A stretch of 64,000 nucleotides of DNA, from assembly GCA_035536455.1 (NCBI GenBank), contig DATLOC010000028.1, positions 144,898 to 208,897 on the forward strand, given 5' to 3'. Position numbers: made by a program. Shown in pieces: positions 15,001-21,000 of the stretch (within the stretch, counting starts at the first letter, position 1; each line of letters starts with the position of its first letter). The stretch comes from Thermoanaerobaculia bacterium. GTDB taxonomy: Bacteria; Acidobacteriota; Thermoanaerobaculia; Multivoradales; UBA5704.

Positions 15001-18000
15001 ACGTCCGCGTCCTGCAGGTCGCTGAAGGCGTTGGCGCGGTAGTTGACGTTGACGTCGAGGTGGAGGCGCGGGATGAGCGTCATCTCGAACCCGGCCCGCG
15101 CGGCGTAGAAGGGGTCGGAGAAGGTGTCCTCGAAGTCGTCGGAGTAGAGCGTGCCGACGCCGGCGCCTATGTAGAGCCCGTGGCCGACGAGCAGGTAGGC
15201 CTGCGGCGAGTAGACCGCCCCCGCCTCGACGCCGCCGAAGTCCTCGGGGAAGTACTCGAGCCCCAGCTCGAAGCGGAAGAGCCCGGCCGGCAGGATCTGC
15301 CAGGAAGCGACGTAGGCCGTGCCGTCGTCCTCGAGATCCACCCCCTCGTCCACCACGTCGTCCAGCGTCCGCCAGTAGTGGACGCCGCCGCCGATGCGGT
15401 GCTCGGCGGCGCCCGCGGCGGCGGGGAGCAGCAGGGTGAGCGCCGCGAGCAGCGGCAGGGTGCGGCGCGGGGCGAGGCTCTTCATCGGCACGTCCTCCTC
15501 TTCCTGGCTGCGTAAGATAGCGCCCCCGGCACTTCCCGTGGCGAAGAAGCTCCTCCTCTCCCTCGTCTCCTGCCTGCTGGCGCTCGGCGCGGCGGAGGCG
15601 GCGGTGCGGCTCTTCGATCTCGCGCCCGAGGTCTCGATCATCCAGAAGGGGCGCTTCCGCCTGGCCCGCAACCCGAAGATCGGCTACGAGCCGGTCCCCG
15701 CCCTCGACTACCGCGGCACCAGCCGCTCCTTCTGGGACTACGAGGGGGCGAGCAACAAGGAAGGCTTCCGCGACCGCGACCACGCGGTCGCCAAGCCGCG
15801 CGGCGTCTACCGCGTCGTCGTGCTCGGCGACAGCATCGCCGCCGGGCTCAAGGTCAAGCACTTCAGGAACACCTTCCCGCCGCGGTTGGAAAGGCTGCTC
15901 GCCGAGAGGGGGCTGCCGGCGGAGGTGATCAGCCTCGCCGTCTCCGGCTACAACACGCAGCAGGAGGTCGAGCTGTTCAAGGAGAAGGGGCTCCGCTATC
16001 GCCCCGATCTGGTGCTCGTCGCCTACTCGCTGACCGACCGCGAGCGGCTGGACGGCGACATCCTCAAGGCCCTCCTCGAGGCCGAGGGCCGCGGCCGCGG
16101 CGTCAGCCGGGCAGGCGCCCACCCGCTACTCGTCAAGAGCGCCCTCTACCGCGCCCTTTGCTACCGCGTCTTCGCCCCGCCGCGCCCGACGGAGGCGAAA
16201 GCCGCCGCGGCGACCGAGGAGGCGCTGGCCCAGATCTCCGGCGACACCGTCGCCCCTTCCTTCGCCGAGCTGGCGCGGCTGGCCGAGGAGCACGACCTCG
16301 AGGTCGTCGTCGCCGTCTTCCCCCGCCTCGTCCGCCGCTTCGCCAGCTACCGCTTCGGCGACCAGCACGAGTACGTCGCCGGCCTCTCCCGCCGGCACGG
16401 CTTCCATCACCTGGATCTGTTGCCCCCGCTAGCCGCCTGCCGCGCCGCGGCGCCGGAGAAGCCCCTCGGCAGAGACAGCTACCACCCCTCCCCCCACGGC
16501 CACGCCTGCGTGGCGGCGGCGATGGCGGAGGTGATCGGCGAGCAGGCGCGGCGAACGGGAAACTAAGCCGCGCCTCCTGGAGATGTTCCGGCGAGACCTC
16601 GAGATTCATCTCGGGGACCGGAAGATAGATCTCCGGCACCGGTAGTGCTCTAAGAAGTAGCACCTGCCGCTCCCCGGCCTAGGCGGCGGCAGCCGCGGCT
16701 TCCAGAAGGTCGGCCATCGTCCACGGCCGGCGGATGAGTCCGGCCTTCATCGCGGGCGGCATCCGCAGCTTGGCGTGGCGCTTCACAAAGTTGTAGTAGC
16801 ACGCCCACAGAGCGACCGCTGCGCGAAGATTCTCCCGCTTCCGGCTGAAGCCGTTGCTTAGCCTGGTGAAGCGCCGCAGGTCCGTCCTCACGGTCCAATT
16901 CAGCCGCTCGACGTGCGACGTTGAGGCCCGGTACCCGTCGGGCGTACCGGAGACGACGACCGTTTCGCTGGTCAATAAGCGCGGCGGTGCGTACCGCCGC
17001 GCTTCCTCGCCTCCCGCGCTCACGTAGGTTTTCACCACAGCGCAGTGGTCAACGCGCGCGCCCAGGTGGTACTCGGCGGCGCGCGGGTAAGCGTGCCAGC
17101 CGTCCGTCGAGAGCTGAAACCGGCCCGACGTGGCGCGCGCCAGCTTGCCCATGAAGTCGTGCGTATCGTCCGCACTCCGCCGGCCGCAGTGCCACGTCAG
17201 CAGCAGCTTGCTCTTCTCCTCCAGTGCCAGGTAGGTGTAGCAGTCGCCGAAGTCCGGGCTGAGCTGCTTCCACTTCTGAGTGCGCGCCTTGGCGCCGACC
17301 CAGGTCCATAGCTCGTCTGCTTCAACGTGCTCGACCGGGAGGCCGGAGATGCGCTCCTCCAGCAGCCGCTCGCACCGCTCGCCCGTCTCCACCAGGAGCC
17401 GCAGGAGCGTGGCCTGGTGGATGCCGGTAGAGCGCGAGACGGCGCGGACGCTGTTTCCCTCGCAGAGCAGGTGCAGCGCGTGAGCTGCCTTGCTCGGGTC
17501 AAGCCGCATCTTCCCGAGCGGCGAGGTGCGCGCCTCCGTCGAGTAGCGCCGACAGACGCGGCACTTGTACCGCTGCCGTCCGAGGCGATCCCGTCCAGCC
17601 TTACGCGCTTGATTCTGGCAGTTGCAGCAGACCATCGGCGGGCTCCTTGTCGGATGCCCGGCCGGGAGCCATAATCGCCGTGCGGGTTCGCTCGGCTCCG
17701 GTCGGGCGGATCATGGCCCCGGTGGTCGTTAGCGCGACTGCCGGGGCCGGTTTGTCTTCCCTCATGCTGGACTTACTGTCTCACAATAAGTAGAGCCTGT
17801 CAAGTAGTTCCCGTATCTTTTTTGTGCTACCCTATTGCCCATGCCAAAGACTGCGAAGCCAAAGCGGCGGATGGGCAGGCCGCCCAAAGACCCTGCCAAG
17901 CGCGCCTCGGATACCTTCCACTTCCGCGTCCAGCCCGACCACGGCGAGCTGATCCGGCAGGCGGCCGACCATGCCGGGCTCGACGCGTCGGCCTGGATTC

Positions 18001-21000
18001 GGGATCGGACGCTGAAGGCTGCGCGGCGCGAGCTGGGGGACGGGCGCCGGCAGGGCTAGGGATCGGACCCGCTCCCGCCGGTAGGGCATGGGTATGCGAG
18101 AGCGAGCCAGGCTAGGCCGTAGCAGCTCGGCTAGCTGACTGCTCCCGCGCCAGCGTCCGATAGCGTCTGGACGCATGGCGGCACCTCCTTTCCGACGCGG
18201 AGGGCCGCCGAGTGGGGTAGACTCCCCCTTGCCTGAGCCCCGGCGGGTTCGCGTCTGGGTTCAAAGATCGCCAGCGTCGCAACCGCTGGCGATCATCATT
18301 TTCGGCGCCACCGCCCCTCCCAGTACACCGGATTTTGGAGTGCTCGAATGGCCCGAGTCGGGTTATTCGGCAGTCTCTCTGTCCCGAGTCGGGTTATTGA
18401 GTGGCGCGAAAAACCCGAGTCGGGTTATTCGGAGCGTCGAATAACCCGAGTCTGGCGGGGAGCGGGGGACAGGAAGATGGATAGGTAGCCTTCCGGTAGT
18501 GTCAGCCGCCGCGCGGCGCTTAGTTGCTCCCAGACCTTCGCATCCGTCACCCCCAGCGGAGTCTCAAGGCTCAAGACCTCGGCAACGTCCTTGGCCCCTA
18601 GACCCTCGGATTCCGCGTCGAGCAACCTGAGGTAAAGCGGCCACAGCTTGCGATGGTGCTTGATGCGGGGCGGGCGGTACCTCACCACAAACTCTTGATG
18701 CCAGCGCAGCGCACCTAGGACAGCTAGCGCTTGCGGTTTCAGCGGCAGGTGAGCGTCAAAGACCATCCACGGGTAGCGATCCCCTCCAGGTCCGGGCGGG
18801 CGGGATTCGTCAGGCCCCCTTGTTTCGAGCTTGCCCCAGCCAATAACGAATCCGAGCTTATGCGGCAGGTCGGTCGCAGGATTCAGCAGCCCGTGCTCTA
18901 GGTGCCACCTGGCTTGCTCTTCGCTGGGAATGCAGAAGGAGGCATCTACGGGGTCTTCCTCACCGCTCCAGAAGAGCCTCTTACTCATATCTGCCGCGTC
19001 ACCGAGACGTGCTAATGCCCTCGCCCAGTCGTCTCGATAGTCGGGGTTTCTCCGCAGAAACTCCCATGCCCATTGAAGGTTGGGAATCTTGAAGCGAAAC
19101 TCGTAAGCAGCGGCGTTGCGCCAGTCCGGCAACTCGCACCCCCACCGGGCGCCCACCGCGGAAAAGGAAGGAGGCGCGGCGGGCCGAGCGGTGGGGTCTC
19201 GGCTTTCGGCGGCCAGTCCTAGCCGCGCCTGAGAAGGATTCTAGGGCAGGGGGGCGGCGGGTGCCTGCGCGCGTACCCACTGGCGCGCCAAGTCCGCCGC
19301 CAGCGCCTTGCACTCGCGCGCATAGTGGAACGTCCCGAGCGCGCGCAGCTCCGGCAGGTAGGTGAGCGTGTACGTCTTGCAGCCGGGCCGGCCGGCGCCG
19401 CCCTGGTCGCCACGGTAGAAGGCGAACGGCTCGGCGATCCAACCGCGCAGCTCGGGCTCGGCGCCGTCGAGCAGGCGCACCCGGAAGCGCCCAAGGCGCC
19501 ACGCGAGGGGGAGCGGCTGCCCCGCCCTCGCGCGCGCCTTCAAGTAGGAATCGAGCGCGGCTCCAGCCCACGCGCCCACGCTCGGGAAGCCTTCGGCTTC
19601 CGCCGCGATCTTCCAGCGGGCCGACTGCGCGACCGTGGCGCGGACGTGGAAGCTGGCGACGCGCAGGTCGTTCACTTCCGCGCCTTCAACTTCGCCAGTC
19701 GAACCCGGAGCGCCTTGAGCATCGCCTCCGGCAACCGCGGTAGCACCTCCTCGGCGCGCGTGACGGCGTTGTAGGGGTCGGCGTCCTCCAGGTAGCCGGT
19801 GAGGTGCGCCGCAATCTGCTCCAACTCCTCGCGCACGTCCGACAGGCCCAGGTAGCACCAAAAGAATGCTTCCGGGCTCGTCTCCAAATACTCCCCGCCC
19901 AGGTTGGCAGGCATGTTGAGGGAGTCGCCCGGCCGCCACTTCGGGATGTCCTGGGGGATGTCCAGCGACGGCGCGCGCTCGCGCTCCTTGCCGCGAGCGG
20001 CGAGACGTTCCACGCTCGCCGTCACGATATGAAGCGCGGAGAGGATGCCGTGGACTTCCGCCCTCGCTTCGGAAATCCGCCTCTCCCCTTCGGGCGTTAG
20101 CTCCTGGACAAGCTGCTGCGCAAGATCGCGGTAGGGGGTTGGCTTCCGCTCGGGGATGGGGATCGGCGGGACGGTAGACTTCCTGCGGTCGGGCATAGGG
20201 TCGTCTCCTGTGCTCGGCAAGTGCTCGGCGGAGGTGCGACCCTCCGCCGAGCGCGCCTGTTTGTAGGGGAATCAGCTCCCCGGCCAGGAGAGTAGGGCGG
20301 GAAAGTGGCATCGGAGCTAGGTGCTACTTAATAGAGCACTACCCCGGCACCCGGAGATCTATCTCCAGCCGTCGGAGATCTATCTCCAGGACCGGGAGAT
20401 ACATCTTCGGCACCCCGAGATCTATCTCCAACCGTCGGAGATACATCTCCGAGACCGGGAGATAGATCTTCGTCTATAGGAGATTTATCCCCAGCGCCCC
20501 GAGATATATCTCCGGCACCCCAAGATCTATTCCGAGGCCCCGGAGATCATCTTCCGGGCCCGGGACTTATCTCCAGCCGTCGCGGGAACGGCTACCATGG
20601 GCCGCGGAGGCATCCGGCGGCCCTCCGTCCCCCTCGGGACGTGCCGGGTACAGCCCCCGCGGCCGTCCGTACAAGCTCCCCAGCGCCCGGGGCGTATGGA
20701 GGCTTAGTTACAGGCTCCCAGCGGCCGGGGGCAAGCTTCCCGATGTGCCGTACTGGCATCCCGGCTCTGCTTCAAGACGCAGGGAGTCTCCCATACCCGA
20801 CGCCCGCCTAAAGCTCTCCGCCCGTAGGGCGTGAGATCGTCCGCAAGGCAGCGGTCGCAAGGTGGAACCCTCTGCGCCTTACGCCCCATCTCCGCCGCTT
20901 GCCTTGACAAAACGGCCCTGCGCACCTAGATTACTTGACAGCGTTAGGCCGTCAAGAGAGGAGGCGCCATGCCCAGAATCCTCCCTCCCTCGGAACTGAG

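Follow-up and report, generated by a model that had tools for sequence, protein, structure and literature searches.

IS1 is the textbook minimal insertion sequence (IS): it is ~0.74–1.2 kb long, carries transposition genes only, with an insA/insB frameshift in the classical group, and has a weak target preference. The locus described here raises the question of what an IS1-type transposase does at one end of a unit of about 3.7 kb that is filled with other genes and set into an array of palindromic 21-bp repeats. It lies in a 64-kb stretch of a contig (DATLOC010000028.1) from a Thermoanaerobaculia bacterium, which we call the window and to which all coordinates without a locus number refer; the element itself spans 16641–20343 (3703 bp). 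We conclude that it is probably an intact IS1-like DDE transposon, one of a cargo-carrying family that inserts in 21-bp palindrome arrays. We also propose, more tentatively, that a small operon within the element selects these arrays.

The 3.7-kb element and its insertion site

The preliminary description of this DNA had reported 25-bp inverted repeats (IRs) matching at 23 of 25 positions, and both a rereading and a repeat finder returned the same pair. The transposase-proximal IR (GGTAGTGCTCTAAGAAGTAGCACCT, 16641–16665, + strand) opens with the GGTAGTG that is common to the relatives described below, and the distal IR (GGTAGTGCTCTATTAAGTAGCACCT read inward) lies at 20319–20343 on the − strand; over 25 nt the two arms are 92% complementary, and both mismatches are central. 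Searched with up to three mismatches, the IR pattern occurs at two sites only in the 64 kb, which are the element ends, and 100 dinucleotide-preserving shuffles of the window gave no match. The 8-bp direct repeat CCGGCACC adjoins both ends (16633–16640 and 20344–20351), in agreement with the target-site duplication claimed earlier, and 39 further relatives have an 8-bp duplication of their own. The suspicion that the IR similarity might derive from the flanking palindromes was not borne out, as the IRs do not resemble the surrounding palindrome array and this array is the insertion target. A chance composite of a ~1.1-kb IS, unrelated genes and a fortuitous distal repeat has the prior that IS1 elements are small in its favor and nothing further; it is made extremely improbable by the lack of a second IR inside the unit (pattern search, up to three mismatches), by the shuffles, none of which gave the repeat, and by the 39 relatives with the same long architecture and 8-bp duplication.

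The array itself serves as an empty-site test. Its unit consists of the 14-bp palindrome GGAGATCTATCTCC and a 7-bp spacer, which gives a period of 21 bp. Three units with GGAGATCTATCTCC-like palindromes lie to the left of the element (16571–16640), their last 8 nt being one copy of the duplication, and ~11 units of 21 bp lie to its right (20344–20575), beginning with the 8 nt of the second copy. The start-to-start spacing of units across the element is 3774 bp, that is, 3711 + 3 × 21, and therefore the register of the array is exactly restored when the element and one duplication are taken out (16621 + 21 = 16642 = 20353 − 3711). The element interrupts the array, and the restored register is an internal test of the empty site.

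The transposase is a single open reading frame (ORF) of 318 aa (16679–17635, − strand), placed at one end of the element as the preliminary description had it, and all five ORFs of the element are intact. It lies just over the Pfam cut-off for DDE_Tnp_IS1 (PF03400; 25.2 bits against 24.1) and matches NCBIfam transpos_IS1 (NF033558) with an E value of 1.2e-25, with weaker matches to IS1595, IS6 and the zinc finger shared by IS1 and IS1595 (NF050000, E 9.7e-5) and weak helix-turn-helix (HTH) matches at residues 51–81. In an alignment of 30 homologues, the four cysteines C3, C6, C25 and C28 of an N-terminal CxxC...CxxC zinc finger are invariant, as are the catalytic candidates D107, D178 and E243. 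A BLASTP comparison with E. coli InsB aligned the D/E blocks with DEQW, TDGW and ERHN of InsB, including the D...E motifs DE(L/Q)W..VGAK and ER.N. The protein is a 'hypothetical protein' in the record of a Thermoanaerobaculia metagenome-assembled genome (MAG; locus L001); its relatives carry the IS1 family label in JGI and NCBI annotation, and the best annotated plasmid relatives are 'IS1 family transposase' entries with 35–39% identity. From these sequence comparisons, we class the transposase as a distant member of the IS1 family.

The element as a whole resembles IS1 in its DDE transposase, which is distantly homologous to InsAB', and shares with it the N-terminal zinc finger and HTH, the GG-N3-TG form of the ends (GGTAGTG at both ends and in most relatives; the GGTGATG of E. 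coli IS1 was confirmed) and a duplication within the 8–9 bp of IS1, namely 8 bp here and in the 39 further relatives. It departs from the compact size of IS1, with 3703 bp, five ORFs and a single-ORF transposase, and because of this size and gene content it is better called an IS1-related transposon or transporter IS (tIS) than a classical IS1.

Three findings weigh against reading the window copy as an intact member of a family of IS1-like transposons. First, the transpos_IS1 score of 90.7 bits stays under the equivalog cut-off of 100. Second, the inner IR half, AAGTAGCACCT, differs from the family consensus GTGTGTTGC. Third, neither a second identical copy nor an empty site was found elsewhere, in searches whose genome representatives do not include the source MAG: the exact-protein look-up of the transposase returned only the same locus (L001, 100% identical), the scan of metagenome contigs with the IRs was empty, and the scan for the junction of the reconstructed empty site yielded three unrelated hairpins. 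Since no second copy or empty site turned up, the mobility of the window copy rests on its duplication, its intact genes and the array register. An immobile relic, with ends or genes that no longer work, would fit the single known copy, the two IR mismatches and the inner IR half that is off the family consensus. We consider a relic unlikely, however, in view of the five intact ORFs, the conserved D, D, E and zinc-finger cysteines and the perfect duplication; moreover, both IRs share the variant inner half, suggesting a co-adapted variant and not decay.

A family of large elements, many of them in 21-bp palindrome arrays

A scan with a profile of the transposase, using one genome per species, gave 80 loci, and ends were sought as IRs around each transposase gene; the relatives come from Acidobacteriota, Planctomycetota and other MAGs. 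At 35 loci, GGTAGTG-type IRs of ~25–28 bp and identical 8-bp direct repeats delimit elements of 2871–5774 bp, and the genomic contexts of homologues of p145, a 144-aa protein encoded in the window element, add four elements whose two ends are both defined (L084, L090, L091 and L092) and one, L082, with a single defined end. Altogether 39 further relatives are delimited on both sides; their IRs are of the GGTAGTG type or related to it, their 8-bp duplications are perfect, their sizes range over 2.9–6.1 kb, and none of them has the ~1.2-kb size of an IS. The preliminary description had regarded cargo as unusual for IS1. The cargo is indeed large, but the window copy is no oddity, since the clade spans 2.9–6.1 kb: long elements are the norm for this type of transposase and not a quirk of the window copy. 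In its IR, the element nearest to that of the window is L090 (6149–11069; IR GGTAGTGCTCTATTAGTGTGTTGCCG); its duplication, AGCCCCGG, lies in an array of the GGAGATAGATCTC type, and a RadC/JAB protein is encoded upstream of its p145. One Gemmatales MAG has two identical 3141-bp copies with a PIN-domain gene, on separate contigs (L052 and L053, both at 4015–7155), and these copies are flanked by different duplications (GAAGTGTC and GACTCATG); as the same element thus occupies two sites, transposition in the family has been recent. In a collection of viral sequences there were only two relatives.

When the window proteins were searched against the 80 loci by tblastn, p145 and a small ribbon-helix-helix (RHH) protein were found upstream of the transposase in most Thermoanaerobaculia loci, and the RHH gene lies beside the transposase in most relatives, those of Planctomycetota included. 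The gene order is IR, variable first gene, p145, variable slot, divergent RHH gene, promoter and leader, transposase, IR. The first gene is a 174-aa ORF in the window, more commonly that of a 'MPEL...' protein, and the RadC/JAB gene in L090. The variable slot contains GmrSD-type restriction enzymes (matching PADLOC HEC-06, Orf5 and SspE, down to E 3e-157), PIN, NYN and DUF3800 proteins, SocA/Panacea, P63C, Clp protease, nSTAND/AAA_16 and AAA_15/21 ATPases, XRE regulators and nested IS, and in five elements (window, L002, L019, L041 and L048) an FseA-like regulator. The genes that the preliminary description listed as cargo are all present, but not all are passengers: in the strict sense only the middle module is one, the RHH gene and p145 being recurrent family genes and the slot adjoining p145 being variable. 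The FseA-like module is the only clearly variable passenger of the window copy.

Two further features of the family concern its architecture. Nested IS lie inside the members at L042 (1100–6873, DDE_Tnp_1 type) and L057 (1452–6969, IS3/rve type). Many relatives (L006, L009, L030, L033, L035 and L036, at ~6900–7700) have an extra 0.6–1.1 kb between the transposase stop codon and the IR, which holds a convergent ORF of 190–300 aa and looks like a second passenger slot; the window copy lacks it.

The reconstructed empty sites of the relatives were tested with Tandem Repeats Finder (TRF) for an array of period 21 running across the junction. Such an array was present for 19 of 22 p145-bearing elements and for none of the 13 p145-less elements. 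With the window element, L084, L090, L091 and L092 added, 24 of the 27 p145-bearing elements with both ends defined lie in arrays, and L082, with its one defined end, agrees. In the same loci, at more than 400 bp from the elements, arrays make up 954 of 185,075 nt (0.5%), so that array insertion stands far above background (binomial P ~3e-43); the association with p145 is likewise significant (Fisher P 2.4e-7). Both values refer to the counts with the window element and before the addition of L084, L090, L091 and L092. The place of insertion within the unit is also constrained: in five elements located in GGRGAnnnnTCYCC+7 arrays (window, L028, L082, L084 and L090), the duplication takes the same position and orientation, comprising the last 6 nt of the spacer and the first 2 nt of the next palindrome; the duplication of a sixth element, L040, is offset by 2 bp. 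An analysis of insertion points relative to dyad centers was suggestive only.

One way to produce this pattern is selection without active targeting, the arrays being neutral places in which insertions persist. Their location is intergenic, here just after a GDSL-lipase gene, and insertion into them should be harmless. Yet they amount to ~0.5% of the surrounding sequence, far below the total of intergenic DNA, five elements have an identical position in the unit, and p145-less relatives from the same bacterial class persist outside arrays; survival at neutral sites is accordingly a rather improbable explanation.

The link between p145 and the arrays holds across transposase lineages. The p145-bearing elements found in arrays belong to three transposase subclades with 35%, 45% and at least 53% identity to the window protein. 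At the distant end, L084 (6432–10473) has a transposase that is 35.6% identical, a different IR (GGTACTGGCTCATTTTGACC), the duplication CGCCGCCG and an AAA_15/AAA_21 ATPase passenger; nonetheless its p145 is 79% identical, and its array is almost identical to that of the window. L091 and L092, with transposases of 45% identity and in inverted orientation, have p145 and are in arrays. Conversely, three relatives from the same class with closer transposases (L031, L033 and L067; 55–62% identity) lack p145 and lie outside arrays. Because the link persists across transposase lineages while p145-less relatives are off-array, we propose the p145 operon as the target selector. It might be a portable module that combines with different IS1-like transposases and steers them into 21-bp palindrome arrays by periodicity, structure or an array-bound protein and not by one fixed sequence, a proposal to which we give somewhat less than an even chance. 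In the mechanism that we suggest, the transposase would bind the IRs and cut the target with an 8-bp stagger, like that of IS1, and the p145 module, a putative RHH DNA-binding protein with its partner, would direct the element into the spacer or loop that separates inverted half-sites.

The operon consists of p145 (19241–19675, − strand) and, upstream of it in the variable first-gene slot, the 174-aa gene (19672–20196, − strand), which has a proline-rich N-terminus and is then helical. These are the two coupled hypothetical genes of the preliminary description; their 4-nt overlap is real, and they match the NCBI calls VNJ70_07070 and VNJ70_07065. The AlphaFold2 (AF2) model of p145, with a predicted local distance difference test (pLDDT) score of 87.9, shows a conserved strand with two helices, a beta unit of five strands and a helix at the C-terminus; the N-terminal beta-alpha-alpha part, with helices at residues 15–27 and 33–50 following the conserved FxVRA strand, is RHH-like in the model, and the C-terminal part is predicted to be a beta-barrel capped by a helix. 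Neither Foldseek (no significant hit) nor the sequence families of Pfam and NCBIfam matched p145, and an exhaustive profile search of 1.84 billion proteins gave 233 cluster representatives, none with an informative fusion. The 174-aa gene has three homologues in 5.8 billion clusters, an AF2 model with a pLDDT of 53 and no family match in the Pfam and NCBIfam scans, and at the profile level it does not resemble the 'MPEL...' protein that fills this slot more often.

Several observations speak against p145 as the selector, or limit the array statistics. The evidence for its targeting role is co-occurrence and nothing else. Its RHH strand is nearly invariant while the array units differ widely, which argues against a simple read-out of sequence; closely related p145 proteins share array types, and a comparison of the RHH strand with the type of array unit gave no clean rule. 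Three p145-bearing elements are off-array at the junction by the criterion used, two of them with arrays within ~110 bp, and elements that share a lineage do not count as fully independent. It is therefore quite conceivable, though we would not lean towards it, that the preference comes from the transposase or from host factors bound to the arrays, the p145 operon serving regulation, immunity or addiction and traveling along. The REP-targeting elements IS1397 and ISKpn1, in which the transposase itself is reported to set the specificity (PMC1525189), are a precedent for this explanation; the almost invariant RHH strand facing variable array units agrees with it, as does the lack of a structural or family match that would give p145 a function. 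It is less easily reconciled with p145 tracking array insertion in three transposase subclades, one of them only 35.6% identical with different IRs, and with the close, p145-less transposases of L031, L033 and L067 outside arrays.

The arrays extend beyond the insertion sites. Among ~165 tandem arrays in all fetched loci, 75 have a period of 21, and the unit sequence varies even within one genome at a constant period (L003, L008 and L015, all from MAG SMAG_U4286); 21-bp arrays seem to represent a repeat class that is general to these genomes and so far undescribed. A second array of this period in the window, at 31906–32160, has no insertion; its units combine CAAGCGGGAA with 11 variable bases, and near 32030 the orientation switches to the reverse complement (CGCTTGCC...). 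In MAG OY969112, the palindrome GGGACTTACGAGATCTCGTAAGGG recurs in GCCC-N6-GGGC arrays (L002, 3140–3185 and 7228–7330; L022, ~7080), and the L002 element is inserted exactly at this palindrome, with the duplication CTCGTAAG. The window array directly follows the GDSL-lipase gene and is itself followed by an islet of lower GC content (20969–24313; 55–65%, against 73–78% in the host), which encodes a 213-aa protein coupled to an XRE-HTH and M78/ImmA-IrrE peptidase gene (21607–22797), an MqsA-like antitoxin (22813–23289), two small coupled ORFs (23511–23983) and an SCO4226-like protein.

Transposase control and the FseA-like passenger

The transposase and the small RHH gene diverge from a control region (17636–17840, − strand) with a TTGACA-N17-TACAAT-like promoter and a structured leader of ~130 nt that includes a hairpin at 17714–17749. 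In the aligned upstream regions of the window (17636–17810, − strand) and 15 loci (n = 16), the promoter is sigma-70-like with an invariant TTG, and the leader of ~130 nt is conserved. A proposed structure of three helices has 79.5% of its cells paired, against 36–51% for slid partners, and contains 11 pairs with changes on both sides; no shuffle reached the observed values. One of the three covarying helices overlaps the ribosome-binding site (RBS). RNAalifold alone returned the first hairpin of the leader only. The RHH protein (72 aa, 17841–18059, + strand, ATG start at 17841) matches the NikA-like (E 2e-5) and TacA1 (E 0.0015) families, both under their cut-offs, and is followed by a terminator-like hairpin with an 11-bp stem and a T-rich tail (18266–18294, + strand), with a similar hairpin at the equivalent place in L019. 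We suggest that the transposase is expressed from the conserved internal promoter through the structured leader and that the divergent RHH protein probably represses it.

An ORF of 114 aa lies antisense to the RHH gene (17832–18176, − strand), is preceded by GAAAGGAGG-N7-ATG, and has counterparts of its RBS and start signals in L002 and L019. It is the gene caller's choice in L001, but as a coding frame it was rejected on the evidence of codon positions, which favor the RHH gene: 17 of the 31 substitutions between the RHH gene and its L040 orthologue fall at third positions.

The passenger of the window copy is an FseA-like transcription factor (18425–19156, − strand; start at GTG 19156 or TTG 19132) with a DUF6499 domain and a DUF2285/RovC DNA-binding domain. 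The FseA family is defined by an AWEFLRRN motif in the N-terminal domain and a C-terminal DUF2285 variant of the HTH (PMC10359603), and the window protein has both, the motif being present as WAWEFLRRNPDY; PF20109 matches over its cut-off (E 5.6e-10) and PF10074 under it (E 0.0045). Directly upstream, a full-model match to the int-alpA RNA motif (RF02996; 19156–19229, − strand) scores 34.5 bits, under the gathering score of 35.8. The same motif occupies the same position upstream of the FseA-like genes of L002 (4501–4577, 29.6 bits) and L019 (1164–1235, 29.2 bits). Because the matches are full-length and at the same syntenic position in three elements, the window RNA is probably a divergent homologue, and this suggests, from sequence, that the int-alpA motif is a 5' leader of DUF6499/DUF2285 regulators also outside Proteobacteria.

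An operator-like cluster (18342–18456) overlaps the 3' end of the FseA-like gene, with three direct copies of CCCGAGTCGGGTTATT spaced 31 bp apart and one inverted copy, built on the half-site CGGRTTATT. This is the repeat cluster of the preliminary description, and it holds up well: the four clear copies (18352–18455), with a fifth match overlapping one of them, occur nowhere else in the 64 kb. L019 and L002 have related CGGATTATT inverted repeats at the equivalent position, so that clustered CGGRTTATT half-sites follow the FseA-like gene in all three elements. Since the sites bound by FseA are inverted hexamers adjoining a promoter (PMC10359603), the half-site clusters are, by analogy, plausible candidate operators; they are located upstream of the transposase and on its strand. 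The passenger may thus be a self-contained regulatory module of an int-alpA-like leader, an FseA-like activator and a CGGRTTATT operator array, and it may additionally drive the transposase by read-through, antisense to the RHH gene. At the other side of the element, between its end and the first gene, a structure scan placed a G+C-rich hairpin with a 14-bp stem (20221–20254).

Known systems and significance

The element differs from IS1 in its 3.7-kb size, the lack of an insA/insB frameshift and a stretch from the second D to the E that is longer by ~40 residues. It has an internal promoter and structured leader, whereas the IS1 promoter is in the IR, and it adds accessory and passenger genes and a strong target specificity. 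The ISfinder 'ISMhu11' group of IS1 extends up to 4.6 kb; a literature search for ISMhu11 gave nothing that would confirm this.

Like a tIS, the element has an IS-type transposase and IRs that enclose genes unrelated to transposition. Passenger-carrying tIS were first described for the IS1595 family, which is related to IS1 (Siguier, Gagnevin and Chandler 2009, cited in PMC3129680; PMC7986276). In contrast to tIS, part of the extra content here (RHH gene and p145) is a recurrent module common to many copies, and the passenger slot turns over among defense-like, toxin–antitoxin and regulatory genes.

A second likeness is to the IS that target repetitive extragenic palindromic sequences (REP) or bacterial interspersed mosaic elements (BIME), namely IS1397, ISKpn1, IS621, ISPpu9/10 and ISPa11, which insert at a fixed place in extragenic palindromes (PMC1525189). 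The family described here likewise inserts in extragenic palindromic repeats at a fixed place, as seen in the 24 of 27 elements in arrays and the five at an identical unit position. Documented cases of such targeting come from the IS3, IS110, IS4, IS256 and IS5 families and not from IS1 (PMC1525189). The REP-targeting elements have no accessory targeting genes and aim at a genome-wide REP consensus, unlike the tandem 21-bp arrays here, whose unit differs between arrays even within one genome. Palindrome targeting with accessory genes or into tandem 21-bp arrays has not been documented previously.

The possible division of labor between a transposase and a separate target selector would, by analogy, recall Tn7 with TnsD/TnsE; the system here is much smaller, however, with no Tns homology and no ATPase regulator. 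The FseA-like protein shares with FseA and RovC the AWEFLRRN motif, both domains and inverted-repeat sites reminiscent of the FseA box, but it is a single ORF without a frameshift and is carried by a transposon, not by an integrative and conjugative element (ICE). Its host is an acidobacterium, while the reported homologues are on proteobacterial ICEs (PMC10359603), and no rdfS or QseM partner gene was seen in the window element.

These cargo-carrying, array-targeting IS1-like elements are a previously undescribed family. They build an IS1 catalytic core into a 3–6-kb element with a recurrent accessory module, insert near-exclusively into one kind of tandem repeat, and shuttle defense, toxin–antitoxin and regulatory genes between soil bacteria in their variable slot. 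Our analysis adds the family context, the division into recurrent and variable genes and the correlation of array targeting with p145; both the elements and the 21-bp arrays are currently unlabeled in MAG annotation. If the accessory module does select the target, it would provide a means of directing a DDE transposase that is compact and amenable to experiment. Targeting by the p145 module would represent a novel route by which a simple DDE transposon reaches safe landing sites; it would offer a handle on the nature of the 21-bp arrays and would point to them as an uncharacterized repeat class in Thermoanaerobaculia.

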